Positions 11,826 through 27,269 of a stretch of 32,000 nucleotides of DNA are shown here, piece by piece (the first letter of the stretch is position 1; each line of letters opens with the position of its first letter). The notes under the pieces were generated by a model. It did no database searches and was not told the origin of the DNA. It saw nothing but the letters and a program-made list of their open reading frames with translations. A program made the translations under genes and the position numbers. This DNA comes from Candidatus Nanoarchaeia archaeon (GTDB lineage: Archaea; Nanobdellota; Nanobdellia; Woesearchaeales; JANQNC01), in contig JANQNC010000001.1 of assembly GCA_028279745.1 (NCBI GenBank), forward strand, positions 1,230,001 to 1,262,000, read 5' to 3'.

Positions 11826-12101
11826 TCATTTAAAACCTATTCTTTTTAAAAAATAATCTTCAGATGATAAAGCTTCAAGTTTAAGTTTTTGAGTCTTAGC
11901 TAATTTTTTTACTTCTTTAGCTATGTTGGTTTTCTTCTGGTTTTTGCTTATTTCAAAAGATGCAATCTTATCAGTAAGCTTATCAAACTTGTAACTGTCA
12001 TCCACTTCTTTTATTTGAGCCAGGTAAGGTTTGATAACTTTAGACCTAACTTGATTATGTTTGTATTGCTCGGTGCAGTATAGGATCTTTAGAGTTGTCA
12101 T
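11826..12101 (-). CDS. small cytoplasmic protein (91 aa), paralog of 17615-17908 (C-terminal SEDYFLK motif)
   Basis: ATGA overlap with the upstream gene. Shares I.ILY....H, KPYL, FEISK and KLKLEALSSEDYFLKRI with the 97-aa protein at 17615-17908. Confidence 0.6.
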   Translation of the reverse strand: MTTLKILYCTEQYKHNQVRSKVIKPYLAQIKEVDDSYKFDKLTDKIASFEISKNQKKTNIAKEVKKLAKTQKLKLEALSSEDYFLKRIGFK

Positions 12102-13519: not shown

Positions 13520-13836
13520 AACCAATCTTTGACTTGCATATACTGCTTAAGAATTTCCAACACTTGATCTCTTCTGTAAAGCTCAGGTGTTCTGAAACGA
13601 TCAGAGGTGTTTGGAGGTATAGTGTTAATCTCAATCATGTATTGGTTTTTTACTATCCTGTAATCTAACGATAGAGTGGGAGCATTGTCTTTAGCTTTTC
13701 TCTCAAATCTAGCGTGTTTTTTGTGTTGTTGGTATAGTGGTTTATCTGTTTTGTTCTCAAAACCTAATTCTTTCAGTCCTAAGTGTAGAAGATTTCTATC
13801 TTCCAACCTTTTTGCTTTTTGTATTATTTTTTTCAT
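13516..13836 (-). CDS. small protein (106 aa) whose C-terminal half resembles the C-terminal Mg-ATP strand region of ATP-grasp enzymes
   Basis: LSLDYRIVKNQYMIEINTIPPNTSDRFRTPEL compared, from memory, with Ddl/RimK-type RIDV....G.FYLLE.NT.PGMT..S..P. The protein is far too short for a complete ATP-grasp fold. SD-like AGGGGA upstream. Confidence 0.4.
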   Translation of the reverse strand: MKKIIQKAKRLEDRNLLHLGLKELGFENKTDKPLYQQHKKHARFERKAKDNAPTLSLDYRIVKNQYMIEINTIPPNTSDRFRTPELYRRDQVLEILKQYMQVKDWL

Positions 13837-13851
13837 TTTTTAGTGTCCCCT

Positions 13852-14481
13852 TTAGTTTAGTAGAGAGTCCAGGTTTTGTGTTCTATCCGTAAGGTTTGCT
13901 TTATATGCTAATTTTAACAGTCCTGGTGCTTTTTTTCTAATGTCTTGTTTTATTGCTGCGTATTTGTTTTCTGCAAACTCCCAGACATTTCTAGATTCTT
14001 CGCTTTCCCTTCTGTTGCGGTAAATAAAATTGTTTAACCGTACGCAATCTACGGTGTTTCTCCAGACTTCGCATTTAATTTTTGTTCCTTCTTTAGTTTC
14101 TATGTTCATATCCATCCATCTATGGTGGTTTAAGTATACTATGTCTCCTGAAATTCTTTTGAAATCAAAATTGTCTCTTTCAACAGCTAAAGTATATTTT
14201 GTTCCGTCATCTAACTCTCCTGAGATCTGTAGGTCTATTTCATATTCCCCTTTTGCATTTGCTCGATCTTTTCTCTCAACAACCTTTATGTCAAGTTCAT
14301 TAGTGTTGTTGGCAAATTGTTCAATTTCTGTTATGTATTCATTTACTGGAATGTTTTTAGTTGTGATGGGTAAACTAAATGCAAGCTCTTCTAAAAATGG
14401 TTTGGGATTACAGTTTTTAACTCCGAATGATGCAGCTGCTGCTAACCAAACTGCAATTAGTAGGGATTTTTTTGCATTCAT
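13852..14481 (-). CDS. secreted protein, conserved-signal-peptide family member 3 (209 aa)
   Basis: The start is trimmed to MNAKKSLLIAVWLAAAASFGVKNC (ATG at 14481, 2 nt after the upstream stop, SD GAGG). Shares EYI....F...EL.IK with the neighbouring paralog. Confidence 0.7.
   Translation of the reverse strand: MNAKKSLLIAVWLAAAASFGVKNCNPKPFLEELAFSLPITTKNIPVNEYITEIEQFANNTNELDIKVVERKDRANAKGEYEIDLQISGELDDGTKYTLAVERDNFDFKRISGDIVYLNHHRWMDMNIETKEGTKIKCEVWRNTVDCVRLNNFIYRNRRESEESRNVWEFAENKYAAIKQDIRKKAPGLLKLAYKANLTDRTQNLDSLLN
14416..14481 (-). repeat. conserved signal-peptide cassette, copy 3
   Basis: tttaactccgaatgatgcagctgctgctaaccaaactgcaattagtagggattttttt... The ~50-nt core differs from the copies at 15088-15155 and 15644-15709 at only a few positions, whereas the rest of the genes is diverged. 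Confidence 0.85.
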
Positions 14482-14483
14482 TT

Positions 14484-15155
14484 TTAGTGCCTCTGTATTC
14501 CTGTGATATTTGCGAAAACCATCTTTTCTATGTCGGGATATTGTACCCCTAACCATTTCCTAAATCTGCTCAGTTCTCTACCTCCAATATCTATAATTTC
14601 TTTATGTTCTTCAGTTTTGTAGTCTATTGGGAGTTTGTATTCAATGTTGTTTATCACTGCATCTGTGACTGCGTAATCAGAGCGGTGCTGAAGGTAAGAA
14701 TAGCTTGTGTTACGAGATAAGACGTCTAAACAAAGCGTATGACTTTTGTGGTATAAAGAGTAATCTAGTAGAAGATTGTACTCAGTTTTCAGTAGATTGA
14801 TATTGTTAATTCTCACTTTAGACCTCCCAAAGGTGCCAGGTTTGTATTCTGTTTTAATATTTAGTTCTGGATATTGTGCTTTGAAACTATCAAAAGCAGA
14901 AATGTATTCAAGCAATCTAACATTTTTGTAATCCAGCTTTTTTAAGTTTACTTTAGGAAGTTTAGGTTTTTTCTTTGCTTTAGGAACTTCTTTAACTTTC
15001 TTTTCAAGCTTCTCTCTTCTTTCTAACTCTTCACTGAACGCTTCATGAAGAATCTTTTTTGTTTCATCAATGGGGGGTGCACATTGTTTAACTCCGAATG
15101 ATGCAGCTGCTGCTAGCCAGACTGCGATTAGTAGTGATTTTTTTGCTATGCTCAT
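14484..15155 (-). CDS. secreted protein, conserved-signal-peptide family member 2 (223 aa)
   Basis: MSIAKKSLLIAVWLAAAASFGVKQC. ATGA overlap with the upstream gene. GGAGG upstream. Confidence 0.7.
   Translation of the reverse strand: MSIAKKSLLIAVWLAAAASFGVKQCAPPIDETKKILHEAFSEELERREKLEKKVKEVPKAKKKPKLPKVNLKKLDYKNVRLLEYISAFDSFKAQYPELNIKTEYKPGTFGRSKVRINNINLLKTEYNLLLDYSLYHKSHTLCLDVLSRNTSYSYLQHRSDYAVTDAVINNIEYKLPIDYKTEEHKEIIDIGGRELSRFRKWLGVQYPDIEKMVFANITGIQRH
15088..15155 (-). repeat. conserved signal-peptide cassette, copy 2
   Basis: tttaactccgaatgatgcagctgctgctagccagactgcgattagtagtgattttttt... Confidence 0.85.
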
Positions 15156-15709
15156 TTTTTCAGGGCCTCCGCTTTTTTAACGTATGTATGTATCGAGTCT
15201 GCCTGTTTTCCTGCTACCCGTATCATAACTAATTTTGCATAGTTGTTTTCTTCTTTTGAGACTTGTTCTGTTAGGTACTCTGCCAGATTTATGTGCCACA
15301 TTGCGATATTGAGATAGTGGTTTATTTGTTGCTCTTTTGTAAAGTAGTCCTGTTTTATTTCAGGTCTAGTTTTTATGAATTTTTTTTCTGTCTTAATCGC
15401 TTCTCTTTCTATAAGCTCTTCTAAGTTCTTTTCGATAGCTTCATCTGTCTCTAACCTATGCAGTTTTTCAACAGCATTCAAAAAATTTTGTTGTATCTTA
15501 GGCAAATAATCATCTTTCTGAGTGTTATAATTTTTCTTTTGAGCTTTTTTTTTCTTTACTGCAAAAACTTTTTTTACTTTTTTCTCAAGTTCTTGTTCAA
15601 CTTCAGGAAGAGGTTTTAGAGTACTTGGATCTGTTTTACAATATTTAATCCCAAATGATGCAGCTGCAGCTAGCCAAACTGCGATTAGTAGGGATTTTTT
15701 GAAGTTCAT
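15152..15709 (-). CDS. secreted protein, conserved-signal-peptide family member 1 (185 aa, Lys/Glu-rich helical mature part)
   Basis: MNFKKSLLIAVWLAAAASFGIKYC. The mature part is predicted helical and charged. Confidence 0.7.
   Translation of the reverse strand: MNFKKSLLIAVWLAAAASFGIKYCKTDPSTLKPLPEVEQELEKKVKKVFAVKKKKAQKKNYNTQKDDYLPKIQQNFLNAVEKLHRLETDEAIEKNLEELIEREAIKTEKKFIKTRPEIKQDYFTKEQQINHYLNIAMWHINLAEYLTEQVSKEENNYAKLVMIRVAGKQADSIHTYVKKAEALKK
15644..15709 (-). repeat. conserved signal-peptide cassette, copy 1
   Basis: tttaatcccaaatgatgcagctgcagctagccaaactgcgattagtagggatttttt... Confidence 0.85.
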
Positions 15710-15717
15710 TTTTTTCG

Positions 15718-16125
15718 TTAAAGTCTCTTTTGATACAAAACTTCTATCTCGCTTGCATACTTATATCCGACTCTTACATCTGGCTCTGCAAATGAAACTG
15801 CCCGTTCACTAAGTGGATATTTAGGGTATTTAGACATACTTATCCTGGTGTCCTTATCAATAAGAAGATCCAGGGTTTCTTTGGTTGTTGCCCCGTCATC
15901 AAGTATATTCAAAGCTAAAATTCGGCCACAATCTGTTTTAACTTTTATTATATATTTTGAGTCTTTGGTATACTTTTCCTCAATTACTTTTCCTTGAATG
16001 CTGTTTTTTGTTTTGTATCCAGGAGTAGACATCTTATGAGTTAGTTTAGCAGTTAAGCCTGCAAGCACTATAGCAGTTGCAATTATGCATCTGTTAAGAT
16101 ATTTGTCAAACCTTTTTTTATTCAT
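15718..16125 (-). CDS. N-terminally anchored small beta-rich protein (135 aa)
   Basis: Signal anchor CIIATAIVLAGLTAKL after a basic N-terminus. SD GGAGA upstream. Confidence 0.6.
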   Translation of the reverse strand: MNKKRFDKYLNRCIIATAIVLAGLTAKLTHKMSTPGYKTKNSIQGKVIEEKYTKDSKYIIKVKTDCGRILALNILDDGATTKETLDLLIDKDTRISMSKYPKYPLSERAVSFAEPDVRVGYKYASEIEVLYQKRL

Positions 16126-16161
16126 TTTTATCTCCTATTGTGTTTTTCATTTTAGTTAACC

Positions 16162-16455
16162 TCATGAATATTTTTCTGCTAGTTCTTCTAAGTTAGTGCT
16201 TAGTTTGTTCATTGCAGTCATTACTGGTTCACCGAAAGATTCTCCGCCATAACTTTTGATTTCTTTAGCCATCCTTTTGTAAAAAACATCTTTTAAGAGA
16301 CCTGCTTGTGGTGCTTTTCTTTTCAGATAGTTCATTATCTTTTGGGGTGCTTGTTTAATTCTGTCATTTGATGTTGTATCTTCATTTACCCAAATCATTG
16401 TGTTTCTTATGTATTCAGAACTTTGTTCGCAGATGCTTTTTAGGTTATTTTTCAT
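16162..16455 (-). CDS. hypothetical cytoplasmic helical protein (97 aa from ATG)
   Basis: The track start (16473) is TTG. The ATG at 16455 lies 4 nt after the upstream stop, with GGTGAGAG upstream. Confidence 0.5.
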   Translation of the reverse strand: MKNNLKSICEQSSEYIRNTMIWVNEDTTSNDRIKQAPQKIMNYLKRKAPQAGLLKDVFYKRMAKEIKSYGGESFGEPVMTAMNKLSTNLEELAEKYS

Positions 16456-16459
16456 TGTC

Positions 16460-16828
16460 TTATCTCTCACCAAAGTCTTGTAATTTTCTGTTTAATCTGT
16501 ATAATTTTACACCTTTCTTGTGATCTTCAACTTCTTCCCACTTGTATTCTCCCCAGTTAAAACTAACTAATCCATCCATGTCTTTCATCGCTTCGTCTCT
16601 ATTTTGGTATGCTGCATTTGCTACTAGAACTTCAGCGATCTGCTCTTTTGTGTATAGAGGTGTGTTTCTAGAACCGAACATTAGTTTGATCTCTGATAAT
16701 GCACTTGTTAACATGCTTTGTTTGCCTATTAACATTTTTTCTAGCTGTCTAAGTGTAGCACATTCTTTGTTCTGTGCAGGAACTAGTGTGTTTGTTGTGC
16801 TTAGTATTGCTTTCATGTAGTTTTCCAT
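16460..16828 (-). CDS. hypothetical cytoplasmic protein (122 aa from ATG)
   Basis: The ATG at 16828 (MENYMKAIL) is preceded by AAGGAGGA at optimal spacing. The longer track start lacks an SD. Confidence 0.55.
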   Translation of the reverse strand: MENYMKAILSTTNTLVPAQNKECATLRQLEKMLIGKQSMLTSALSEIKLMFGSRNTPLYTKEQIAEVLVANAAYQNRDEAMKDMDGLVSFNWGEYKWEEVEDHKKGVKLYRLNRKLQDFGER

Positions 16829-16841
16829 TTTATTTTCCTCC

Positions 16842-17231
16842 TTAATTAAATTCAAAAGGGGTTGTAGATAGTACTGATTCTAGGTTGTATATTTTTACTG
16901 TTTCTGATTTGTTTCCTTCTCTATCTACTGCATATACCTCAAAAGTATAAGGCATGTTGTCTCTTACTTCTCTTGGAACTACAAAAGAAGCGCTGTGTTT
17001 TAGTTTGCATCTGTTTACTAGTTTTACTTTTTTGTCTTCACAAACTGCATAAGCAGTCATTCCAACTGCGTTGTTGTCCTTAAAATCTATGTATTTACCG
17101 GATGCATCCTCTAAGACAGGTATTTTTTTATGCTGCTCTGATTCTACTTTTGTTTTTTCAGTTGTTGAACATCCAGTAAACCCAAAATATAATGTTGCGA
17201 TTGTTGCTATAGTTGCTAGTACTTTTTTCAT
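16842..17231 (-). CDS. lipobox-type putative lipoprotein (129 aa), tandem paralog B
   Basis: MKKVLATIATIATLYFGFTGC (lipobox-like FTGC). GGAGGA SD. The first 44 coding nt plus the SD are identical to the upstream paralog. Confidence 0.7.
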   Translation of the reverse strand: MKKVLATIATIATLYFGFTGCSTTEKTKVESEQHKKIPVLEDASGKYIDFKDNNAVGMTAYAVCEDKKVKLVNRCKLKHSASFVVPREVRDNMPYTFEVYAVDREGNKSETVKIYNLESVLSTTPFEFN

Positions 17232-17245
17232 TTTTTATTCCTCCT
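17188..17245 (-). repeat. 58-bp perfect direct repeat, copy 1 (SD, ATG and signal-peptide codons of lipoprotein B)
   Basis: tataatgttgcgattgttgctatagttgctagtacttttttcattttttattcctcct is identical to 17575-17632. Confidence 0.95.
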
Positions 17246-17618
17246 TAAACTTTTGATAACTGTCTACAAATTCTCCAGAAATCTGAGTTAGTTTCCCCCT
17301 TATGTCTATGTCAACCTCACTCTTGAATATGGGTTTTTTGGTTATTACTCTGACACTATCTCCTAATTTGAACGGATCTGCTTTTCCGGAACAGACGTAA
17401 ACGTTACCTTCTTTTGTTCTAATTTCGTATGCGTTGATTTCGCTCATTATGCTTCCATTACCTGTGCCCCATAATGATGCGTTTTTATTGTGTATGCTGT
17501 ATTTGTTAGTGACTCTTCCAACAAGGGGATTTTCAGAATGTGTTGCTTTGTTTTCAGAACATCCTAATCCGAAGTATAATGTTGCGATTGTTGCTATAGT
17601 TGCTAGTACTTTTTTCAT
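17235..17618 (-). CDS. lipobox-type putative lipoprotein (127 aa), tandem paralog A
   Basis: MKKVLATIATIATLYFGLGC (lipobox-like GLGC). GGAGGA SD. ATGA overlap with the upstream gene. Confidence 0.7.
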   Translation of the reverse strand: MKKVLATIATIATLYFGLGCSENKATHSENPLVGRVTNKYSIHNKNASLWGTGNGSIMSEINAYEIRTKEGNVYVCSGKADPFKLGDSVRVITKKPIFKSEVDIDIRGKLTQISGEFVDSYQKFKEE

Positions 17619-17632
17619 TTTTTATTCCTCCT
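17575..17632 (-). repeat. 58-bp perfect direct repeat, copy 2 (SD, ATG and signal-peptide codons of lipoprotein A)
   Basis: Identical to 17188-17245. The copies are 387 bp apart. Confidence 0.95.
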
Positions 17633-17908
17633 CAAGCTTTTCAAGAAATAATCTTCACTTGTTAGTTTTTCAAGAGTGATTCCTTTTTTTTCAGCAAAAG
17701 ATTTGATTCTTATTTGGTTTTTATAGGGGGTTACATAGCTTTCAATCTTGAATACTGAAACTTTTTCAGTTACACTTTCATGGCGAACTGCTTTTCTAAG
17801 GTTTGCAGATTCACCTAGAACAGTCATTAAATAAGGTTCAACAAGCTTGTCCAGTATTGGGTTAAAGTCATGTTTTTTGCTGTCGTAAAATATGGCAATT
17901 CCTACCAT
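17615..17908 (-). CDS. small cytoplasmic protein (97 aa), SEDYFLK family, first gene of operon A
   Basis: ATG at 17908 preceded by a G7 SD-like tract. Paralog of 11826-12101 (EPYL, FKIES, ITLEKLTSEDYFLKSL). Confidence 0.6.
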   Translation of the reverse strand: MVGIAIFYDSKKHDFNPILDKLVEPYLMTVLGESANLRKAVRHESVTEKVSVFKIESYVTPYKNQIRIKSFAEKKGITLEKLTSEDYFLKSLRRNKK

Positions 17909-17921: not shown

Positions 17922-17942
17922 TAGTCACTTGTTTAGTTACTA
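17922..17942 (-). promoter_or_regulatory. 21-nt palindromic element in the 5' leader of operon A
   Basis: tagtcac-ttgttta-gttacta: 7-nt arms with one mismatch and a 7-nt spacer. It lies 14 nt upstream of the ATG at 17908. Same element as at 21613-21633. Confidence 0.5.
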
Positions 17943-17963
17943 GGTAGAAGTAATTAGATGTAG

Positions 17964-18005
17964 TATTTATATGATTTCCATATAAATTATAGTGAACATT
18001 ATAAA
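17964..18005 (-). promoter_or_regulatory. conserved promoter/operator module, copy A (heads operon A, 17908->11826)
   Basis: The plus strand reads tatttatatgatttccatataaattatagtgaacattataaa. On the minus strand this is TTTATAATGTTCACTATAATTTATATGGAAATCATATAAATA. 39/42 identical to copy B. Confidence 0.75.
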
Positions 18006-18050
18006 AAATGCCCGAAGTAGAAGGGTGCAATGGTGATTTGCTTCTTCGGG
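18001..18050 (-). terminator. hairpin plus T-run terminator-like structure after operon B
   Basis: cccgaag(ta)gaag ... cttcttcggg forms 11 bp with a 2-nt bulge at 18011-18050. On the minus strand it is followed by CATTTTTTAT. It lies 27 nt after the stop of 18077-18796. Confidence 0.55.
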
Positions 18051-18076
18051 TCTTTATTCTTCCTTTAAAATATCAT

Positions 18077-18796
18077 CTAGAACTCTGCTATCGAATTCTC
18101 TTCCTTTGGATTTCTGTATACTAAATAAGAACAGACTTCTTTGATGGATCTGTGGTTTGTATCTACTAAACCACTTTTGACACTGTTTCCGAATATAGAA
18201 GCACCGTTTGCTTTAAAATATGGATAAAGAAGGATGCCTCCTTTTTCTAGCTCAGGTAAGGCTAAGTTATCTATTCCATCAATAAAGAAGTAGGGCTTGC
18301 CTTCGAGACTTGTCACTCTTTTAAAATAATGGTCCATGATTTCTTTTACATTATTCATAGTTTCCGTAAATCTTTTTGTTCTTTTACAACCTAAAACATT
18401 TTTTATGAGGCTGTCTTTTTTAACTTCATCGTAATCTGTTTCTTCTCCTCCTCTAATGAGTCCCATTGTTTTGTTGTCGGAAACTCTGATAAGATTGCTA
18501 TTTTCAGTAGTATATTCATCTGAACCAACAAGATAAGGCTTTAGAAATTCAGGTAGTTCGACAAAATCTCTAAATATCTCCCTTCCCTGTTCGGTTTCTA
18601 TATTTTTGGTTACTGCGTATAAAAGATCAGTTAGTTCGCTGTAGGTAGGGAGTCTTAATATGTCGTCCTCGTGTTTTTTAAGGTCTTCCATCTTTTCTCC
18701 TATGACTCTCTTTGGAGAGAAGTATATGTTTCCTTCAAGACCTTCTACTTTTAGTGCAGGTCTTTGAACTTTTACTTCAATGGTTGTTTCTCTCAT
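18077..18796 (-). CDS. hypothetical protein (239 aa), last gene of operon B
   Basis: SD GAGGT upstream. Followed by a hairpin plus T-run at 18001-18050. No family recognised. Confidence 0.6.
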   Translation of the reverse strand: MRETTIEVKVQRPALKVEGLEGNIYFSPKRVIGEKMEDLKKHEDDILRLPTYSELTDLLYAVTKNIETEQGREIFRDFVELPEFLKPYLVGSDEYTTENSNLIRVSDNKTMGLIRGGEETDYDEVKKDSLIKNVLGCKRTKRFTETMNNVKEIMDHYFKRVTSLEGKPYFFIDGIDNLALPELEKGGILLYPYFKANGASIFGNSVKSGLVDTNHRSIKEVCSYLVYRNPKEENSIAEF

Positions 18797-18799
18797 TTT

Positions 18800-19342
18800 T
18801 TACCTCAAAAAAGTTTCATAAAGGTGTGTTACTAACTTATCATCATCTTTAATCAATTCATTTATTTGTTCTAGTGTTGAATCGATCTTAGGGTCTCCCA
18901 TTGTGTTATCCATTATATCAAAATCTTTTGGGCAAGAGTCTATGTCAAAATCTAGATAGTGTTTACGATTATGGTCAGATATGCTTATGAAATACACTCT
19001 TTCTGATAAATTATCGACTTTATCGCCGTATAACATTTTAGTTAAACCCTTGTAAGTGATGTCTTCTTTAAAGTCTAATGCTAGTCTGTATCCTTCCCTT
19101 TTGTTAACAAATACGGAAATTGCAGATACTGTCATTAAATAAGGTTGAAGTGAGAGTGTTATCCCTTCTCTTTTAGTGCCATCTGTGTCTTTTGAAGTTA
19201 ATTTACTCTGTATGATGTTTTTAGAATCTCCTACTAAATTCTCCATTTTTGATAAATAGTTATCTCCGACTAATCTGGTTAAGTCTGAAGTGGTGTTTAG
19301 TACAAAATTGCTTTTTTCATGTGGGGTTAGTTCTATGTTCAT
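18800..19342 (-). CDS. hypothetical protein (180 aa)
   Basis: ATGA overlap with the upstream gene, and SD GAGGGT within it. No family recognised. Confidence 0.55.
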   Translation of the reverse strand: MNIELTPHEKSNFVLNTTSDLTRLVGDNYLSKMENLVGDSKNIIQSKLTSKDTDGTKREGITLSLQPYLMTVSAISVFVNKREGYRLALDFKEDITYKGLTKMLYGDKVDNLSERVYFISISDHNRKHYLDFDIDSCPKDFDIMDNTMGDPKIDSTLEQINELIKDDDKLVTHLYETFLR

Positions 19343-20091
19343 TTTCTAACCCTCTTTGGATTAAACAAATCTAATGATTTTTTTTCTGTTTCAAGTCTTT
19401 TTTCTTCTCTTCGCTTGTCTGCGTTTGCCAAAAATTTTTCTAGTCTTTTCTTATCCGATTTTGCTTTTGCTGCTTCTTTTTTAAGTTCTTTGTACATTTT
19501 GTTTAAAGCACTAATTAACTTTAATTCAAGTTTTTCTTCAAAATTTACAGAGTGTGGCTTGTTTCCTGAATGGTAAGTTATCTTATTTTTAAAATCTTTA
19601 AACCTATCGTTGGTGTTGAAGTCAATTCCTAATGGGAAAGAGTCAACTAATGAAACTAACCTGTTTTCTTCTCTAGCCATATATTGAAAGTTTTCTTTAC
19701 TTAAATCCTTGTTGTGGAGTATTTTAAACTGGGTTTTATCTGTTTTTTTGCTTCCTTTGTTTCTTGTTTCTTGGAATACGTAAACGAAATCTGTGCTGTC
19801 TTCATAAAAAACTTTTTCATGTGTTATGAATTTGCCATCTGGAGAGATGTAAAGTCTGCTGTACATTGGCATAAGATGATCAAATTCTTTTGAATTTGTT
19901 AATTTATAGGCTAGTTGTTCTATTTTTGTTCTATTTGAATTTTTTTGTAAGTATTTTCTTATAGGTAAAGGTTTAGCATTCACTTTTGTGGCTAAAGCAA
20001 AATAGGTAATCACTGCTGCGGTTGTTGCTATCTTTCCTGCGTTGTCATAAATTTTCTTTCCGATGTTGTATAGTTTTTGTTTTATTGTCAT
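19339..20091 (-). CDS. N-terminally anchored protein (250 aa) with C-terminal Lys/Glu-rich coiled-coil-like tail
   Basis: The track start is GTG. The ATG at 20091 (MTIKQKL) has GAGGAG 5 nt upstream. Anchor KIATTAAVITYFALATKV. Confidence 0.6.
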   Translation of the reverse strand: MTIKQKLYNIGKKIYDNAGKIATTAAVITYFALATKVNAKPLPIRKYLQKNSNRTKIEQLAYKLTNSKEFDHLMPMYSRLYISPDGKFITHEKVFYEDSTDFVYVFQETRNKGSKKTDKTQFKILHNKDLSKENFQYMAREENRLVSLVDSFPLGIDFNTNDRFKDFKNKITYHSGNKPHSVNFEEKLELKLISALNKMYKELKKEAAKAKSDKKRLEKFLANADKRREEKRLETEKKSLDLFNPKRVRK

Positions 20092-20099
20092 TTCTCTCC

Positions 20100-20447
20100 T
20101 CACATCATTGATTCTACTTCTGTTTCTGATAGTTCCATTGCGGGATCTGCGATGTCATGATTATCAAACTCGTCTAGTCTTTCGATTCTTGCTTCAAGTT
20201 TAGCATAAAAGTCTGTTAAGTCATTTCCTGTCATCTTGACAAGATCTATCTTCCTTTCTGAGCTGTGTTCACATCTGTAAAGTGTTTCTTGATCAAATGT
20301 GTTTATGAAATATGTTTTGCCTTCGAACTTTTCGTCATGGAATGCTCCATTGAAACGGTTGTCTAAAATCTCTCTGATGCTGTCATTATTCCATCCTTCA
20401 CTAGGGTTTTGTATGGTCAGATTGTATCCGTTTTCGATTATTTTCAT
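20100..20447 (-). CDS. acidic hypothetical protein (115 aa)
   Basis: SD GGAGAA upstream. No signal peptide. No family recognised. Confidence 0.55.
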   Translation of the reverse strand: MKIIENGYNLTIQNPSEGWNNDSIREILDNRFNGAFHDEKFEGKTYFINTFDQETLYRCEHSSERKIDLVKMTGNDLTDFYAKLEARIERLDEFDNHDIADPAMELSETEVESMM

Positions 20448-20450
20448 TTT

Positions 20451-20627
20451 CTAGTTCTCCATATCGTCATGGTACCATTTGCCGAATCTTGCTTGGGTTA
20501 TCGCTCCCGGGATTCTGTCTAATTCTTCTAGGCTAAGCTTTCTATTGCTCTTGTAAGCTACGCCTCTGTTTATCTCTGATTTCATGAATTGTTTAAGGTC
20601 TAGTTTGTTTTCTTTTGTTTCTTCCAT
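20451..20627 (-). CDS. small ORF (58 aa) missing from the track
   Basis: Hand translation gives MEETKENKLDLKQFMKSEINRGVAYKSNRKLSLEELDRIPGAITQARFGKWYHDDMEN. It fills the otherwise unexplained 236-nt gap inside operon B, and its stop lies 3 nt before the next ATG. Confidence 0.45.
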   Translation of the reverse strand: MEETKENKLDLKQFMKSEINRGVAYKSNRKLSLEELDRIPGAITQARFGKWYHDDMEN

Positions 20628-20683
20628 TTTCTCATTGACTTCTTTGTTTTCTTATTGTGATTCGTTTTTTGGTTCTGTTATTT

Positions 20684-21586
20684 TCATTTCCTCACAGTCA
20701 GTCTTTTGTATTCTGCTTTTTGGCCGTTGTTAACTCCGATTATGTAAGTTCCAGCTCCAACAGGTAGACCGTTCTTGTTTGTTCCATCCCAAACTTTCTG
20801 TCCTTTCAGATCTCTAATCATCTTTCCATGGATGTCGAATACTTTAGCATCGATCCCGTTGTGATTAATGTTGATTTGAGAACCTGATTTTGCAGGGTTT
20901 GGACTAACATTCATACCTTTGTAAATTCTTCTTGGAATGTTTTCAATATTTGCTGGAGGCAGAACCGTTACTACCGTAGATTCGGTTGTGTTTTTGCCTT
21001 CATTATCTGTTATTGTTAATTTGGTTAAATAGGTTCCAGGTTCTGAGTATCTGAATGTTACGGTGTGGTCACCTGCCATTCCGGCGTCTATCTCTCCATC
21101 ATTATCGTGGTCCCATCTGTAGACTATGCTAGGATCAGATCCTGTTATGCTGAATTCTACATCTAAAGGTGCTTGACCTGTAGTCTCTGTTGATCCTACT
21201 ATTCCAGGCGTTCCTGCCTCTCCTTCTGCTTTTTGTGCTGCGATTACAACTGTTTCGCTTGTTTGTTTTCCTTCATTATCTGTAACTGTAACTGTAGCTA
21301 TGTATGCTCCTGGTTCTTCATATCTGTTTGATATTGTGTGGGGGCCGTTTGCGGTTGCATCCACGTTTCCATCTCCGTCAAAGTCCCATTCGTACTTTAC
21401 TATGTTGCCATCAACGTCAAGGCCTGTTGCGGTAAATAAGGTATTTAGCGGCGCAACGCCTGATTGGTTTATTGCGTTAACTGTAACGTATGGTGCTATA
21501 TTATCTGTAGAACTTGCTCTTGCTGCAGGTGTTAAACCTAACACTGCTGACAAAACAAGTGCTGTTAATGTTTTTGCTTTTTTCAT
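20684..21586 (-). CDS. secreted protein with two PKD domains and a T9SS-type/FlgD-Ig-like C-terminal domain
   Basis: Signal peptide MKKAKTLTALVLSAVLGLTPAARA. Two PKD-like repeats: GVAPLNTLFTATG...YEWDFDGDG...Y.EPGAYIATVTVTDNEG, and GQAPLDVEFSITG...YRWDHDNDG...YSEPGTYLTKLTITDNEG. The C-terminus VSPNPAKSGSQINI...AKVFDIHGKMIRDL...WDGTNKNGLPVGAGTYIIGV resembles the Por/T9SS sorting and FlgD-Ig domains. G+C is visibly higher than in the neighbours. Confidence 0.8.
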   Translation of the reverse strand: MKKAKTLTALVLSAVLGLTPAARASSTDNIAPYVTVNAINQSGVAPLNTLFTATGLDVDGNIVKYEWDFDGDGNVDATANGPHTISNRYEEPGAYIATVTVTDNEGKQTSETVVIAAQKAEGEAGTPGIVGSTETTGQAPLDVEFSITGSDPSIVYRWDHDNDGEIDAGMAGDHTVTFRYSEPGTYLTKLTITDNEGKNTTESTVVTVLPPANIENIPRRIYKGMNVSPNPAKSGSQININHNGIDAKVFDIHGKMIRDLKGQKVWDGTNKNGLPVGAGTYIIGVNNGQKAEYKRLTVRK

Positions 21587-21612
21587 TTTTTGTTTACCTC
21601 TTAGTTATCATC

Positions 21613-21633
21613 TAGTCACCTCTTTTGTGACTA
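21613..21633 (-). promoter_or_regulatory. 21-nt palindromic element in the 5' leader of operon B
   Basis: tagtcac-ctctttt-gtgacta: perfect 7-nt arms and a 7-nt spacer. It lies 27 nt upstream of the ATG at 21586. Confidence 0.55.
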
Positions 21634-21657
21634 CTGAGTGGTGAATATACTATCTAC

Positions 21658-21699
21658 TATTTATATGTTTTCCATATAATTTATAGTGAACCTTATAAA
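21658..21699 (-). promoter_or_regulatory. conserved promoter/operator module, copy B (heads operon B, 21586->18077; also abuts the divergent AbrB-PhoU promoter)
   Basis: The plus strand reads tatttatatgttttccatataatttatagtgaaccttataaa. The core atagtgaac lies at 21683-21691, 15 nt from the TATA-like tatttatatg, the same spacing as in copy A. Confidence 0.75.
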
Positions 21700-21710
21700 T
21701 TTTCGAAAGG

Positions 21711-21718
21711 TTTATAAA
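21711..21718 (+). promoter_or_regulatory. TATA box for the AbrB-PhoU gene
   Basis: TTTATAAA, 24 nt upstream of the ATG at 21743. Confidence 0.55.
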
Positions 21719-21742
21719 GGAAAGCCCACTACCCCCTTATAT

Positions 21743-22603
21743 ATGAAAAGAAAAATCATCGAATTAGGCAATAAATGCATGGTAACAAGTCTACCCATAA
21801 AATGGGTCAGAGCAAGAAACCTGCAGAAAGGAGATGAGATAAATCTACAAGAATCAGGCAATGATCTAGTAATTTCTTCAAAAGAATCACAAAAAGAATC
21901 AATAACAATCAACGATCTAGAGAATGCAACAGAAAAAGATTTGAGAACTTTGGTATCATCAATATACCGAAGAGGATACGATGAAGTAATACTAGAAACA
22001 AAGTCAGAATTCTCATTTGCAGAAATAAACAGGATAGTAGACACATTAACAGGATATGTAATTACTGAGCAAACACCAACTAAAATTATAATAAAGAATA
22101 CAATCAAAGAAGATTTTGAAGATTTGAACTCTTTAATGATCAAGTTATTCACAACAACACACTACTTTAATGAGGCAGTAATCAAACATGTTCAATCAAA
22201 AAACAAAGATGAATCAGAAATTGACCAGTTAAGGATGTCAATCATGAGAACAAGAGACTATTGCCAAAGAATGATAAGGCTAACACAACATGAAAGAAAC
22301 AAATCACATGAATATGATACAATAATGTTCTTACTAGAAAGGATAGCTTGTGATTATCATATGATCGCAAGATTCAAAGACATAACAGACAAAGGCGGAA
22401 TCCAAAGGATGAAAGATTTCAATGAGTATCTTGAAGGATTAAGCAAAGTTTTACAAGATGAAGACAAAGAGAAAGGACTAGTTCTAAATCAAAAGATAAG
22501 ACAAACACTAAGAAAGCAGTATGAAAGAAAAGCAGCACTTACTTTGCCTATTATTGAGAATATGTTTAGTTTGTCGATATTAATCCTTGGAAGTCTGGCT
22601 TGA
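21743..22603 (+). CDS. AbrB/SpoVT-domain plus PhoU-like regulator (archaeal 'phosphate uptake regulator' architecture)
   Basis: MKRKIIELGNKCMVTSLPIKWVRARNLQKGDEINLQESGNDLVISS is an AbrB swapped-hairpin pattern. It is followed by a ~230-aa helical region. The start is trimmed from the GTG at 21686 to the ATG at 21743, 24 nt downstream of TTTATAAA (21711-21718). Confidence 0.7.
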   Translation: MKRKIIELGNKCMVTSLPIKWVRARNLQKGDEINLQESGNDLVISSKESQKESITINDLENATEKDLRTLVSSIYRRGYDEVILETKSEFSFAEINRIVDTLTGYVITEQTPTKIIIKNTIKEDFEDLNSLMIKLFTTTHYFNEAVIKHVQSKNKDESEIDQLRMSIMRTRDYCQRMIRLTQHERNKSHEYDTIMFLLERIACDYHMIARFKDITDKGGIQRMKDFNEYLEGLSKVLQDEDKEKGLVLNQKIRQTLRKQYERKAALTLPIIENMFSLSILILGSLA

Positions 22604-22981
22604 TTTTTCTTCTTCTCTTAATGCGTCAAGTCTACCCAAACTTCTATAGTACTTACTTATCTCTGTCTGGTTATAATTTGTTATCTCTTCTGGCCAAGTC
22701 TTAATGTTTTCATGTATCTGGAGATATGTTTCATCACCCATATCAAAGAAAGTGATCCCTTTATCTATAAGTGAAACTAAAGTAATGGTATTATATTCTG
22801 ATTTTGGATAATAATTAAAACCCAAATAACCATCTTTATTATCTGGAGAGACCATAATCAGACCTACTCCGCATTGATCTACCACTACAGATCTGAGAAG
22901 ATGTATGTTATCATCTCCATCTTCTAATTTGATACTTGAGTTTACAATCTTTTCTAATTCGGGTGGTAAGTCTAGTTTCAT
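22580..22981 (-). CDS. hypothetical protein (133 aa), last gene of operon C
   Basis: ATGA overlap with the upstream gene. Its 3' end overlaps the convergent AbrB-PhoU gene by 24 nt. No family recognised securely; there is a faint SUKH/SMI1-like flavour (LPPELEKIV...). Confidence 0.55.
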   Translation of the reverse strand: MKLDLPPELEKIVNSSIKLEDGDDNIHLLRSVVVDQCGVGLIMVSPDNKDGYLGFNYYPKSEYNTITLVSLIDKGITFFDMGDETYLQIHENIKTWPEEITNYNQTEISKYYRSLGRLDALREEEKSSQTSKD

Positions 22982-23529
22982 TTTTTATTTTTTCTCAAAG
23001 AATAGAAATATCTCCATTTACTTCCGGGGTTTCCTATGCCCATAGCTTTTCTTTCTAAAATTCCTTGTTTGAACAATCCATTAAGGTATTTAGAAGCAGT
23101 ATCATAGTGTATCTCTGCAGCTTCTGAGACATGACGAACGGTGTAATTTGCTTCGTTAGTGAAGAACACCTCTATAACTTTTTGTTTAATCGTTTTCTCA
23201 CCTCTAAGAAGGGCTCTACCCATACGACTGTAAGATTTCTTAGCTGGTGTTCCGCCAATGCTCATACCTAGTATACCGAACCTCTTTTGGTACTTTTGGG
23301 TTAAGTTTCGTATTTCAATTTGAATATCTTCTTTTATGCTAGGATCATCTATTGAAAGTAGTTTGTCAATTAAACCACTTGCTTTTTCAAAATCATCTTG
23401 TTTAAAAAACGCATTTATTTTTTCTACGTAACTCATGGCGAGTTTATAGTTTGAGTTCATTGGTTTAGGTGCTTCAGTTGGTCTTGGTGTCTTGGGTTTT
23501 GTATTAACCCCATAATCTTGTTGTGTCAT
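22978..23529 (-). CDS. winged-helix DNA-binding protein (183 aa) with a disordered N-terminal region
   Basis: C-terminal YTVRHVSEAAEIHYDTASKYLNGLFKQGILERKAMG...WRYFYSL gives an HTH plus wing. SD GAGGT upstream. Confidence 0.6.
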   Translation of the reverse strand: MTQQDYGVNTKPKTPRPTEAPKPMNSNYKLAMSYVEKINAFFKQDDFEKASGLIDKLLSIDDPSIKEDIQIEIRNLTQKYQKRFGILGMSIGGTPAKKSYSRMGRALLRGEKTIKQKVIEVFFTNEANYTVRHVSEAAEIHYDTASKYLNGLFKQGILERKAMGIGNPGSKWRYFYSLRKNKK

Positions 23530-23536
23530 TTTTGTT

Positions 23537-23872
23537 TTACCTCTTTTTCTTTTTTATTTTATATGATTTAATCGCATCAAAGTGGAATACAATCCCTCCA
23601 ACGTATCCTGGATCAGGTGTTTCTTTTGAACTTTTGAATTTACCTGAAGCCAATCCTATCTTTTCTTCATCAATCTGATTTACAAAGCCGATAAATATTC
23701 TGTCTGAGTATGTCTGATAAACTTCATCGACTCTCATGTATGTTGGAACTCCGCCAGTAGCTACCATCTCTATCTTAGCGTCAGACCTTAAAGAGATCTC
23801 TAGCTGGTTTCCAAGTTCAACATTGTCTTTCTTCATCTTTAATCTCATTCTATCTTGTTCTGTAGTTTCCAT
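23537..23872 (-). CDS. hypothetical protein (111 aa from second ATG)
   Basis: GGAGGT lies 8 nt upstream of the ATG at 23872 but only 2 nt from the ATG at 23878, so the second ATG is preferred. Confidence 0.5.
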   Translation of the reverse strand: METTEQDRMRLKMKKDNVELGNQLEISLRSDAKIEMVATGGVPTYMRVDEVYQTYSDRIFIGFVNQIDEEKIGLASGKFKSSKETPDPGYVGGIVFHFDAIKSYKIKKKKR

Positions 23873-23884
23873 TTTCATTACCTC

Positions 23885-24169
23885 CTATCTTAACATAGTA
23901 TTTATCAAAAGCTTAACCGATAGTTCTGTGTTCTTGATGTATTCCTTGTGGTAAACTTCAACATTAACTATCTTATCATCACCTGGATGGGTTTCATTGT
24001 AGTGTTTAGCTAAAGCATGAGTTTCTACAAACATCCTGTAAGATCCTATAAAAAACTCTGTGTGGACTGGGTTGGCAGTAGTTGCGCCACCCATAAGATA
24101 CTCAAAGAACTTTTTAGCATTATCAAAGTTCTTTTCTGATTGTGTCAATATTTTTTCTCTTAAGTTCAT
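23885..24169 (-). CDS. hypothetical protein (94 aa)
   Basis: ATGA overlap with the upstream gene. No family recognised. Confidence 0.5.
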   Translation of the reverse strand: MNLREKILTQSEKNFDNAKKFFEYLMGGATTANPVHTEFFIGSYRMFVETHALAKHYNETHPGDDKIVNVEVYHKEYIKNTELSVKLLINTMLR

Positions 24170-24651
24170 TCTTCGCCGATAATCTGATAAGTTTTCTTTG
24201 CTAGATCAATGTGGACTGCTTCGCCTTTTTCTATATCTCGTAGCGATTTAATTTGGATCTCTTCTTTTCTCATGAAATATTTTGGGAAAAAATCAAGTGT
24301 TTCCAGATGACCAACCATGACCAAAGCGTCCGCTTTGTCTCTATTTTCATTAACAAGATCCAGCAGGTTATTCCTAAACTTAGGGTCGTAGGAATAACCC
24401 GTTGGAGAATCGCTTCCGGTCCAAAGATACTGGATCTGCTCAAAATTAGGATCTAGGTGTAAGTGATGAGAAAGTTCCATAGAGCTATCTACTGCTCTAG
24501 GGGCAGTTGAAGAAACTAAGTAGATAGAACCTTCTTTAACAATACTTTTGATCTCTTTAGCTAAGAAATTCATCTGTTGTTTACCAAGTTCATTTATTCT
24601 GTAATCAGGTCCATCGTAGTCTGCATGTCTTGTGATGAATAAATGTTTCAT
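24166..24651 (-). CDS. histidine phosphatase superfamily protein (SixA/PGAM-like, 161 aa)
   Basis: N-terminal LFITRHADYDG (RHG-type motif), SSTAPRAVDS, and VMVGHLETL (second catalytic His). Confidence 0.7.
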   Translation of the reverse strand: MKHLFITRHADYDGPDYRINELGKQQMNFLAKEIKSIVKEGSIYLVSSTAPRAVDSSMELSHHLHLDPNFEQIQYLWTGSDSPTGYSYDPKFRNNLLDLVNENRDKADALVMVGHLETLDFFPKYFMRKEEIQIKSLRDIEKGEAVHIDLAKKTYQIIGEE

Positions 24652-25193
24652 TTTGTATATTGTCCCTTGAGCTTTCTTCCAAAATTATGCAGTTTCAGAG
24701 AGAGTTTGGACTTTTCTTTTGTTTCTCTAACGAACATTATGTACTTTTTGAAAACGTCAACTATTCTGCCTGTTAGAAAGTAATCTTCTTTGATTGATAC
24801 GGGATGTAAGTCATAGTTTGTACCATTTAAAGAAAAGTAAAATGTGAAATCATTATCTCGGTGAGGTCTATGTGCTTTTTCCCAGTCTTTTTCAGCGGGT
24901 CCAATGTGGTTATATGTTTTAATGATTTTTGGAAACTCAATCTCAAGCCCTTTGTATTTAATCTCATTTAGATCTCCGGGGATAGTCATTAACAAAAACC
25001 TTCTAACAAGGATATCTCCCGTTATATCAGAACCACTTTCATTTCTGATAAGTCTTTCCCTCCACCCACTTGTGTTAAATAGATATTTGGGTTTTTCAGC
25101 TTCAAGTGAACTGATAAGATCTGTTAACACTTCTCGAGCCGCAAGTCTTCTTACAAAGCAAGAAGGCGAGTTTAATTCTTTTTCTTTATCCAT
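24648..25193 (-). CDS. hypothetical protein (181 aa)
   Basis: SD GGTGAG upstream. 4-nt overlap with the downstream gene. No family recognised. Confidence 0.55.
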   Translation of the reverse strand: MDKEKELNSPSCFVRRLAAREVLTDLISSLEAEKPKYLFNTSGWRERLIRNESGSDITGDILVRRFLLMTIPGDLNEIKYKGLEIEFPKIIKTYNHIGPAEKDWEKAHRPHRDNDFTFYFSLNGTNYDLHPVSIKEDYFLTGRIVDVFKKYIMFVRETKEKSKLSLKLHNFGRKLKGQYTK

Positions 25194-25195
25194 TT

Positions 25196-25504
25196 TTATC
25201 TCACCAAAACTTCAAAAACTTTGTTTGAAAGAACATCTTCAGGCTCGTGAACTTTTCTTTCTCTGGGTTTTGTGTTAACAGCAACGCCCTCAAGTTTACT
25301 GCCCTTAACAACATCATAGAATTCATCAAACCCTTTGGGGTAGAGCACTCTTATGCTTGTAGTTCCGGGAATGATATGTCTGGAAAAAGCAAGGTCGTTA
25401 AACTGAGAATAGCCTTTAAAACGAGGGGAGATGCCCTCGTCTACACATCTTGAGATGTATTGATCGACTGTTCCATCTTTTGAATTATCATACCAACCTA
25501 CCAT
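25196..25504 (-). CDS. hypothetical protein (102 aa), first gene of operon C
   Basis: Leaderless-type start 23 nt downstream of the TATA-like part of promoter module C. The N-terminus MVGWYDNSKD faintly echoes MVGIAIFYDSKK of the first gene of operon A. Confidence 0.55.
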   Translation of the reverse strand: MVGWYDNSKDGTVDQYISRCVDEGISPRFKGYSQFNDLAFSRHIIPGTTSIRVLYPKGFDEFYDVVKGSKLEGVAVNTKPRERKVHEPEDVLSNKVFEVLVR

Positions 25505-25527
25505 AACAGCATCAGAAAAACTAGAAG

Positions 25528-25570
25528 TATTTATTCTAAATCCTTATAATTCATAGTGAACATTATAGAT
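25528..25570 (-). promoter_or_regulatory. conserved promoter/operator module, copy C (heads operon C, 25504->22580)
   Basis: The plus strand reads tatttattctaaatccttataattcatagtgaacattatagat. The 15-mer atagtgaacattata is identical to copy A. The TATA-like end lies 23 nt from the ATG at 25504. Confidence 0.7.
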
Positions 25571-25571
25571 T

Positions 25572-25934
25572 TTAGAACGGAAGGCTTTCTAAATATTCAA
25601 TAATCTTGTCAGATAGCTCTTTAGAAACTTTATCATAGAATTTAGCAGTTGCTTTGGTCTCAAACTTTTTTAAGATTCTGCTATCATGCCAAAGTTCTAA
25701 GCTTTTAGGTTTGAGCATGTATTTGAATGGGTAGATCTTAAGCTCTATCGTGTCGCCAGGTTCTAGTTTATCGCCATACTTGCTTGCAAGATCAGTAAGA
25801 ATATTCTCTTCATTATTTATTGTAGTGATTATGGTCCTTAACGAAACCTTTTCAGCTTCTTGATTGATCCTTTCTTTAACTTTAAACTCTTGATCTGAGA
25901 TGTAATCTTTTAACTGTTGTAGTGAGTAAGACAT
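25572..25934 (-). CDS. hypothetical cytoplasmic protein (120 aa)
   Basis: The ATG lies 22 nt downstream of CTTTAAATATT (25957-25964) with no SD. No family recognised. Confidence 0.55.
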   Translation of the reverse strand: MSYSLQQLKDYISDQEFKVKERINQEAEKVSLRTIITTINNEENILTDLASKYGDKLEPGDTIELKIYPFKYMLKPKSLELWHDSRILKKFETKATAKFYDKVSKELSDKIIEYLESLPF

Positions 25935-25967: not shown

Positions 25968-26228
25968 TCACTTTGCATTATCAAAAAGTAGTCTCTGGAA
26001 GAAAAGAACTGTCCACAACCCTGCATTAACACCAGTAACGATTGTAGAATAAAAAAGATCTAAAGAAAAGAAACCAAAAGTCATAGCATAAAGACCAATC
26101 GCAGTAATTCCTGAAGTCGGTAATGTGATAAAACCTTTTCTTAACTTGAAACCATGATTAACTTGACAGGCTATAGAAAAAGTAAACAAAATGTTGGATA
26201 TAGAAATTAAAGTGTCTTGCCACATCAT
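25968..26228 (-). CDS. small 3-TM membrane protein (86 aa), possibly SemiSWEET/PQ-loop-like
   Basis: Three hydrophobic segments in 86 aa. The first ends in ..FSIACQVNHGFKLRKG, which resembles the PQ-loop motif with CQ for PQ. ATGA overlap with the aroE stop. The match is weak. Confidence 0.45.
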   Translation of the reverse strand: MMWQDTLISISNILFTFSIACQVNHGFKLRKGFITLPTSGITAIGLYAMTFGFFSLDLFYSTIVTGVNAGLWTVLFFQRLLFDNAK

Positions 26229-27209: not shown

Positions 27210-27261
27210 TAATGGGTGCGGCCTTTTTAGACTTACTTTAGAGTAGTAAAATATGGAAAAA

Positions 27262-27269
27262 TTTATATA
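27262..27269 (+). promoter_or_regulatory. TATA box for the 27292 gene
   Basis: TTTATATA, 22 nt upstream of the ATG at 27292. Confidence 0.55.

Follow-up and report, generated by a model that had tools for sequence, protein, structure and literature searches.

Three copies of a promoter-like module head ORFan operons in a Candidatus Nanoarchaeia archaeon and suggest an AbrB-PhoU-type protein as candidate regulator

A nearly identical sequence of 42-48 bp occurs three times, each time at the head of an operon composed largely of ORFan genes, in the 32,000-nucleotide stretch of Candidatus Nanoarchaeia archaeon DNA analysed here (contig JANQNC010000001.1, positions 1,230,001 to 1,262,000; hereafter the window). 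The three-copy observation is real. From sequence comparison, we consider it somewhat more probable than the contrary that in this module an archaeal promoter is combined with an operator for the AbrB-PhoU-type regulator encoded next to one copy (copy B), the other two copies (A and C) wiring two more operons into the same control. To our knowledge almost nothing is known of gene regulation in DPANN archaea, because these organisms are uncultivated and their genes are mostly ORFans. The module would provide a concrete cis-element with a named candidate regulator over ∼25 genes, many of them with signal peptides, and the proteins so controlled may act at the cell surface or at contact with a host.

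A first-pass annotation of this DNA had reported three near-identical 42-mers heading three minus-strand operons with 25 genes between them. The sequences lie where they were placed and are as described, the agreement of A and B at 39 of 42 positions was reproduced, and the operons are strings of 12, 6 and 7 genes. A repeat search of the window returned the three copies, extended to 48 nt, as one ungapped family (Table 1), with copy B at 90% and copy C at 75% identity. Pairwise identities over the 42-mer are 39/42 (A–B), 33/42 (A–C) and 32/42 (B–C), and over the 48-mer 43/48, 36/48 and 33/48, respectively; when the window was shuffled 200 times with dinucleotides preserved, best matches to the copy A 48-mer reached 28.4 on average (s.d. 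0.9) and 31 at most. The 15-mer ATAGTGAACNTTATA has exact matches in the window at the three module sites only, and at up to two mismatches it is found four times against 0.54 expected, the fourth match, with two mismatches, lying at 27590 inside coding DNA. This match was tried as a fourth copy (27579-27604) and treated as chance, being coding DNA, 77% identical and missed by a five-copy profile. Its sequence, ATAAGGAACATTATA (27590-27604), resembles the core variant deduced for the locus of the homologue P0017 described below (ATAARGAAC), a likeness that is probably also due to chance.

All three copies are intergenic, each immediately preceding the first gene of its operon on the minus strand, and they form direct repeats spaced 3.7-3.9 kb apart. 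Module C begins 5 nt past the stop codon of the gene at 25572-25934, and copy B probably marks the ancestral location of the module. The earlier statement that no other non-coding sequence of the window is conserved in this way agrees with the repeat search, which gave no other non-coding repeats of this kind, the remaining large families being paralogous coding 5′ ends. Segmental or gene duplication was considered as the source of the repeat and rejected, since all-against-all BLASTP revealed no paralogy between the first genes of the operons; these downstream genes being unrelated, the repeat did not come about through the duplication of genes. Outside the window, the five-copy profile (nhmmer) found no additional copy in ∼100 kb of related archaeal loci, and a scan of a genome collection, of which the source genome is not a member, gave 15 single chance matches in unrelated bacteria.

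Read on the operon strand, the proximal half of the module matches an ordinary archaeal core promoter. In the window (G+C 34%, no tRNA genes, no Rfam matches) the consensus aaAgaTTTATATA precedes the first genes of transcription units, and for eight of them its distance to the ATG is 22-25 nt (a leaderless arrangement); internal operon genes are preceded by GGAGG-type Shine-Dalgarno (SD) words. A bacterial sigma-70 reading was discarded, sigma-70-like sites not being enriched (51 found versus 55 expected). We trained a weight matrix on 11 generic promoters of the window and applied it with a threshold of 6; scores of 10 or more were reached at 18 positions of the window (both strands, ∼64,000 positions), 11 of which are training sites. 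The proximal GGAAAnCA-TATAAATA of the module, made up of a transcription factor B recognition element (BRE) and a TATA box, scored 10.4 in copy A and 11.5 in copy B, on the operon strand only, and the copy B element is also kept at the orthologous AbrB-PhoU loci L018, L019 and L020. In copy C the element is weak (Table 1), and its TATA-like 8-mer stands 23 nt from the ATG, compared with 22-25 nt in the eight leaderless genes. Copy C would accordingly give rise to a leaderless mRNA, and copies A and B, with TATA-to-ATG distances of 55 and 71 nt, to transcripts with predicted leaders of ∼32 and ∼48 nt that contain SD-like G-rich words. A minus-strand scan with the matrix detected no other comparable BRE/TATA inside operons A and C, and weak in-gene matches only (7.7-9.7) in the interior of operon B.

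The reading of the module as a promoter with an operator, put forward in the first-pass annotation, is supported by the match to the BRE/TATA consensus on the operon strand only, by the geometry of copy C and by the position of the conserved core upstream of the BRE. Its further claim that the other promoters of the window share nothing with the module beyond a generic TATA box likewise agrees with our scan, the module element not being present in the generic promoters.

The core of the module, on the operon strand, is the imperfect palindrome P1, ATAATG-TT-CACTAT, which is found near −50 (∼25 nt upstream of the TATA centre) and whose CACTAT half-site is invariant in all five sequenced module copies. 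The three copies align without gaps, such that the stretch ending in TATTTAT(A/T) is 17 nt from the 15-mer in every one of them, in place of the spacings of 15, 15 and 16 nt given previously. In copy B the centre of P1 is 28 nt from the centre of the operon TATA box and 25 nt from that of the AbrB-PhoU gene; the first-pass figure of 19 nt from core B to the TATA box of this gene (21711-21718) holds if counted from GTGAAC, whereas the distance from the 15-mer is 13 nt. A second palindrome, P2, overlaps the BRE and the TATA box. Its arms match at 8/9 positions in copy B and in the related locus L157 described below and are degenerate in copy C, and no compensatory changes were seen.

Comparative support for an operator comes from other archaeal genomes. 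The search of related DNA with the motif that had been proposed in the first-pass annotation was carried out on metagenome contigs with the DNA pattern TATAANNNATAGTGAACNTTATA alone. It returned 18 loci, 17 of which match nothing past the pattern and are attributable to chance, and one true relative, L157, a 16.5-kb archaeal contig that carries the whole module (at 41/42 identity with B and 40/42 with A). Of the 16 bases that flank it, ∼5-6 agree with those of the window, and no other DNA alignment was found between the two loci. In L157, as at copy B, the module separates an ORFan operon from an AbrB-PhoU homologue that points in the divergent direction. The adjacency was observed independently, no protein information having entered the scan. 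A third genome, reached via the protein (L162), has TTATATGTTTTGCATAAGAATTATAGTGTTCACTAAG upstream of its AbrB-PhoU gene; in register with A, B and L157, this module matches them at 30-31 of 42 positions, and TAGTG-TT-CACTA, a palindrome without mismatches, forms its core. L157 and L162 each hold a single module copy, at the regulator gene. A further homologue, P0017, is 60% identical to the L157 regulator, and its gene call extends 32 codons upstream of the true start; in a comparison of this read-through with that of L157, 15/18 codons are kept over the module and 4/12 over the next 36 nt. The half of the module outside the BRE/TATA, with CACTAT in it, is the part best conserved across the three or four genomes, and next to it the true promoter from which the regulator gene is read has diverged. 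The related contigs encode archaeal histones, deoxyhypusine synthase, archaeal Lon and Bud32, and homologues of the one widely conserved protein of the region are annotated as Candidatus Woesearchaeota or Nanoarchaeota; together with the promoters described above, this identifies the source as a DPANN-type archaeon.

These comparisons bear on the possibility that a strong constitutive promoter was copied to the three operon heads, by duplication or gene conversion, with no dedicated regulator. Such an origin would suit the proximal half, which is an ordinary BRE/TATA, as well as the TATA-like words TTTATAAT and TTTATATG of the distal half (the latter scores 8.5 in copy A), and copies within one genome could be young. 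It is nevertheless the half outside the BRE/TATA that is best conserved, CACTAT included, next to a regulator promoter that has diverged; moreover, 11 stronger generic promoters of the window lack the module and the TATA box of copy C is weak. We therefore regard a constitutive promoter as improbable.

Not all AbrB-PhoU loci have the core. At L018, L019 and L020-23 the BRE/TATA-like proximal part is kept and the core GTTCACTAT is not present, nor is there a core in the upstream stretch of L163, the contig of which begins ∼110 nt upstream of the true start. The distinction is mirrored in the proteins. Over its first 30 residues the window protein is identical to two proteins from core-bearing loci at 22-23 positions, with 16-18% identity in the remainder, and to four homologues from core-less loci (L018, L019, L020 and L163) at 11-15 positions, with 33-39% identity in the remainder. 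The conserved N-terminal segment at core-bearing loci reads MKRKIIELG(N/H)xCMVxSLP, and the class defined by IIELG(H/N)xCMV accounts for ∼15 of 164 sampled family members. Repeated words containing ATATG occur upstream of AbrB-PhoU genes whose N-terminal segment is of the other class: L163 (40-90) has GATATGA in three places, and L018 (3585-3625) likewise has three of ATATGTTTT. Judging by sequence, these repeats, at loci devoid of the core, may be the operator of that class.

The AbrB-PhoU-type gene is the sole plus-strand gene between 6019 and 27178. Its 3′ end overlaps the convergent last gene of operon C by 24 nt (22580-22603), so that transcription of operon C enters the regulator gene in antisense. 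PF04014 was matched by 38 of 40 aligned family members (best E value 1.1e-8); the window protein itself gave E=0.0012 and 19.2 bits, below the cut-off of 24.7. Its structural model (predicted local distance difference test score, pLDDT, 92.7) comprises an N-terminal swapped-hairpin, a middle alpha/beta part and a six-helix bundle. Residues ∼1-50 of the model superimpose on the MazE chains 1ub4_C and 2mrn with a root mean square deviation of 1.4-1.5 Å over 45 columns (probability 1.00). The top Foldseek matches of the six long C-terminal helices (128-285) are bacterial PhoU structures (2i0m, 1sum, 1t8b and 4q25), at probabilities of 0.97-1.0, but with E values of 0.009-0.3 and template modelling scores of 0.3-0.5, and PF01895 (PhoU) was matched by 3 of the 40 family members. 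On the basis of the family matches to PF04014 and of the model, the AbrB-PhoU protein is a credible DNA binder. Binding to inverted repeats in their own promoters is common among proteins of the AbrB/MazE/VapB fold (for example, PMC3384007). The AbrB-PhoU family is large, with ∼2,200 cluster representatives at E≤1e-30. In the literature searched we found no characterised AbrB-PhoU fusion regulator, no operator for one and no DPANN promoter motif, and we found no solved structure of the fused type; if the assignment is right, P1 would be the first recognition sequence for this family.

The most serious rival keeps the promoter-operator and changes its cognate factor, which would be operon C's winged helix-turn-helix (wHTH)-like ORFan (22978-23529), a ribbon-helix-helix (RHH) protein (30706-30846), a tandem Lrp/AsnC protein (293-1237) or an unlinked protein, with the AbrB-PhoU gene as one of the targets. 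A core upstream of the BRE fits activator sites of the Lrp/Ptr2 or EarA type (PMC5512572), and a double-domain Lrp/AsnC protein is indeed encoded in the window; operon C would, moreover, autoregulate its own wHTH-like gene, the product of which has weak helix-turn-helix matches. All of these matches are sub-threshold, however, and the single-sequence model of this ORFan is unreliable (pLDDT 48.7, below 50 in the C-terminal half), so that the wHTH label is not confirmed; no homologue of it was found among 5.8 billion sequences. Of the window proteins, the AbrB-PhoU protein alone has a homologue on L157 or L162 (no Lrp homologue was found there), and the other candidates therefore cannot account for the module in these loci. 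In addition, it is the N-terminal segment of the AbrB-PhoU protein that tracks the presence of the core. A different cognate factor is unlikely on these grounds, and the sequence evidence leads us to favour the AbrB-PhoU protein over the wHTH and RHH candidates. Of the regulators suggested in the first-pass annotation, then, the AbrB-PhoU protein stands, adjoining the module in both L157 and L162, whereas the wHTH and RHH proteins are without supporting evidence; the likeness to Lrp/Ptr2 sites drawn there concerns only where the core lies, upstream of the BRE, and no link between the tandem Lrp/AsnC protein and the module was seen.

The spacing of the copies could also be taken to indicate recombination or mobility sites, either integron attC-like cassette boundaries or, for a small mobile element, its ends or its target, since three direct repeats 3.7-3.9 kb apart border blocks of ORFans and a copy in another genome matches at 41/42 positions in spite of very different neighbouring proteins. 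No integrase, transposase or recombinase was found among the window proteins, however, and viral, phage and plasmid collections gave no match. L157 and L162 have their one copy at the regulator gene, the copies differ by 10-25% within one genome, and the exact promoter geometry would have to be a coincidence. We hold such a role to be very improbable. A viral, proviral or plasmid origin of the region was rejected separately, as there are no PHROG or Pfam hallmark genes and no BLAST match in phage and plasmid collections; in IMG/VR the 15-mer gave chance matches only and a 20-mer pattern no viral match. The 15-mer occurs three times in a giant-virus metagenome contig (L069, 7775-10444), inside near-identical tandem paralogous genes that are unrelated to the module. 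Replication-origin recognition boxes, considered by eye, were dropped, the module copies being dispersed direct repeats at operon heads with no orc1/cdc6 nearby.

Least probable of all, and scarcely to be entertained, is that the module is a structured RNA or part of one, for example a small RNA or an element of a 5′ leader. Hairpin folding of the proximal palindrome is possible (z of −1.8 to −3.3 for A and B), and the leader of copy B contains a stable hairpin, formed by palindrome P3. Against this, there are no Rfam matches, the five-copy consensus fold has an energy of −1.16 kcal/mol with no compensatory pairs and with pairs broken in C and L162, and the module lies upstream of the predicted transcription start. 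P3 is convincing as an RNA hairpin in copy B only, those of A and L157 being weak; of the four GTGACTA words of the window, three fall within the A and B leaders. The B leader also includes a five-codon upstream open reading frame (ATG ATA ACT AAG AGG TAA; 21597-21614, minus strand), which has no counterpart in the A leader. Ahead of it stands GAGGTGA, a part of the right arm of that leader's hairpin, and its stop codon overlaps the SD site of the PKD gene. The terminator-like hairpin at the end of operon B (−11.2 kcal/mol, z −1.1) was not called by a simple terminator scan.

If the module is the operator-bearing promoter that we favour, control could operate as follows. The BRE/TATA element GGAAAnCA-TATAAATA would drive each operon from the minus strand, and a dimer of the AbrB/MazE-type swapped-hairpin domain would bind P1. 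Copy B would be a bidirectional control region, with P1 midway between the TATA boxes of the operon and of the regulator, so that the protein would control its own gene along with the divergent operon. Copies A and C would be extra copies of the cassette that bring two more ORFan/secretome operons into a local regulon of ∼25 genes, and the PhoU-like C-terminal helical bundle would be the signal-sensing part. We lean towards activation or recruitment at P1 over repression, given a site placed upstream of the BRE and sub-consensus TATA boxes, that of C being very weak; activation seems about an even prospect, and repression a smaller though substantial one. The position of P2 across the BRE and TATA box would permit repression at higher occupancy, and by analogy with the habits of AbrB, MazE and VapB proteins, repression or concentration-dependent dual control is a serious alternative.

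Several observations weigh against this proposal. Copy B and the L157 module differ at one base in 42, spacers included, which exceeds the needs of a simple dimer site. Possible explanations for the conservation are overlapping constraints (the BRE/TATA, two palindromes and bidirectional use) or lateral spread together with a matching DNA-binding segment. The P1 sequences of the window are 1-2 mismatches away from a 6+6 palindrome, and so loose a pattern is not uncommon in AT-rich DNA (four occurrences, with 1.7 expected). The same genome encodes another AbrB-PhoU paralogue, P0003, 52% identical to the window protein. The comparison of N-terminal segment and core sets three to four loci against four, with L157 and P0017 related to each other and L162 not independent, and the distribution of the motif was assessed over the 32-kb window, the metagenome contigs and the ∼100 kb of related archaeal loci.

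A more far-reaching version of the same proposal, which we consider rather unlikely, is that the 42-bp block is a portable cassette that was copied from B to A and C and moves between DPANN genomes together with, or towards, a matching AbrB-PhoU N-terminal segment. This would explain the 41/42 identity between genomes in which the regulators are 16-18% identical outside the first 50 residues, and also the mosaic make-up of the regulator (a DNA-binding segment of one class on a body of another) and the unrelated downstream genes. Fast-evolving ORFan/secretome operons would then have been plugged repeatedly into one sensor-regulator circuit. Even within the window, the favoured reading, if true, would be a clean case of a regulon growing through the copying of a whole promoter-operator block.

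Table 1. Positions of the module copies, their sub-elements and the associated genes in the window
Feature	Position	Strand	Description
Module copy A	17958..18005	-	Heads 12-gene operon (17908→11826); reference copy; nhmmer E=1.2e-5; minus-strand reading TTTATAAT-G-TTCACTAT-AATTTATATGG-AAATCA-TATAAATA
Module copy B	21652..21699	-	In divergent intergenic region between PKD-protein operon (21586→18077) and AbrB-PhoU gene
Module copy C	25522..25569	-	Heads 7-gene operon (25504→22580)
BRE GGAAATCA and TATA TATAAATA, copy A	17964..17979	-	Score 10.4
BRE GGAAAACA and TATA TATAAATA, copy B	21658..21673	-	Score 11.5
Weak BRE/TATA GGATTTAG-AATAAATA, copy C	25528..25543	-	Score below threshold of 6; 23 nt from ATG
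P1 (core palindrome), copy A	17989..18002	.	Plus strand ATAGTG-AA-CATTAT; 1 mismatch to ATAGTGNNCACTAT; proposed operator
P1, copy B	21683..21696	.	ATAGTG-AA-CCTTAT
P1, copy C	25553..25566	.	ATAGTG-AA-CATTAT
P2 (proximal palindrome), copy A	17965..17987	.	ATTTATATG-GAAAT-CATATAAAT; 9-bp arms; overlaps BRE and TATA
P2, copy B	21659..21681	.	Arms match 8/9
P3 (leader palindrome), A	17922..17942	.	Minus strand TAGTAAC-N7-GTGACTA; at or just after predicted transcription start
P3, B	21613..21633	.	TAGTCAC-N7-GTGACTA; −8.0 kcal/mol, z −3.5
BRE/TATA of AbrB-PhoU gene, TCGAAAGG-TTTATAAA	21703..21718	+	24 nt before ATG, leaderless; score 16.1
AbrB-PhoU-type gene	21743..22603	+	286 aa; proposed cognate regulator
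Operon A	11826..17908	-	12 ORFan genes, many with signal or lipoprotein-like N-termini; no Pfam families
Operon B	18077..21586	-	6 genes; first encodes a PKD-PKD-Por_Secre_tail protein, the rest are ORFans
Operon C	22580..25504	-	7 ORFan genes, among them the wHTH-like ORFan 22978-23529
Terminator-like hairpin CCCGAAG...CTTCGGG followed by T6	18003..18050	-	End of operon B; abuts or overlaps upstream edge of module A

Compared with Pfam and PHROG, the 25 operon genes gave no family other than that of the PKD/Por_Secre_tail protein, the remaining matches being weak and sub-threshold. The first gene of operon B (20684-21586) matches Por_Secre_tail with 29 bits (cut-off 27), a C-terminal sorting signal of bacterial type IX secretion that is unexpected in an archaeon. 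In operon A, the gene at 12098-13525 encodes a 475-aa signal-peptide protein without family matches, in which a beta-strand-rich glycine/aromatic pattern, seen by eye, is reminiscent of membrane beta-barrels. The two end genes of this operon (11826-12101 and 17615-17908) are distant paralogues, 26% identical over 92 aa, with SEDYFLK as a common C-terminal motif. A 76-nt repeat (17179-17254 and 17566-17641; 93% identical, with a 47-nt stretch at 100%) spans the SD site and the signal-peptide 5′ ends of the tandem paralogues 16842-17231 and 17235-17618, and the Logan assembly breaks there.

The otherwise dissimilar proteins encoded at 13852-14556, 14484-15155, 15152-15709 and 27292-27918 begin with a near-identical lipoprotein-like signal peptide, KKSLLIAVWLAAAASFG(V/I)KxC, a pattern suggestive of a secretion leader that undergoes recombination or conversion and is carried by a variable family of the secretome. 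For the last of these genes the mechanical open reading frame (27253-27918) probably has a wrong start: a strong BRE/TATA at 27262-27269 (score 16.1) lies 22 nt before an ATG at 27292, from which the frame opens with a signal peptide, in agreement with a 208-aa Logan gene call. The RHH-like gene (46 aa) has its own leaderless promoter (TATA 30872-30879) and heads two large ORFans (27936-30742) that are paralogues of each other (30% identical); together these three genes separate aroD (31161-31847) from aroE (26225-27178).

An operator-bearing promoter with a cognate divergent regulator is an arrangement of known type, and the principle of regulation is not new. Among archaeal systems the closest in layout are those of Ptr2 of Methanocaldococcus jannaschii and of EarA at the fla operon of Methanococcus maripaludis (PMC5512572), where, as in the module, a short site lies upstream of the BRE/TATA at about −50, the core promoter heading the operon is sub-optimal and the site is partly palindromic or repeated. 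The module differs from these in that its predicted binder has the AbrB/MazE swapped-hairpin in place of the Lrp or EarA fold, the sequence motif is unrelated and the site lies within a 42-bp block that is conserved along its whole length; activation, moreover, is in our case an inference.

In its N-terminal fold the window protein is akin to AbrB and to the MazE and VapB antitoxins (archaeal VapB14, PMC10127717; VapBC operators, PMC3384007), with which the module shares an inverted repeat, here an imperfect one, as the proposed binding site in the regulator's own promoter region, several palindromes per control region being common in that group. In contrast to these proteins, there is no toxin partner here and the domain is fused to an alpha/beta part and a PhoU-like six-helix bundle, while the site belongs to a bidirectional archaeal BRE/TATA promoter and has been copied to the heads of unlinked operons. 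Bacterial PhoU, the best structural match of the C-terminal six-helix bundle, lacks a DNA-binding domain and works by way of PhoR/PstB; Pho boxes are PhoB sites of a different sequence from the module, and the three operons have no link to phosphate uptake. Finally, the repeated promoters of phages and viruses (the T7 class and the temporal promoters of archaeal viruses) are likewise long, near-identical sequences heading co-directional operons of unknown genes. In the window, by contrast, there are no viral hallmark genes, PHROG yields one weak regulator match and the core promoter is the BRE/TATA of the host.

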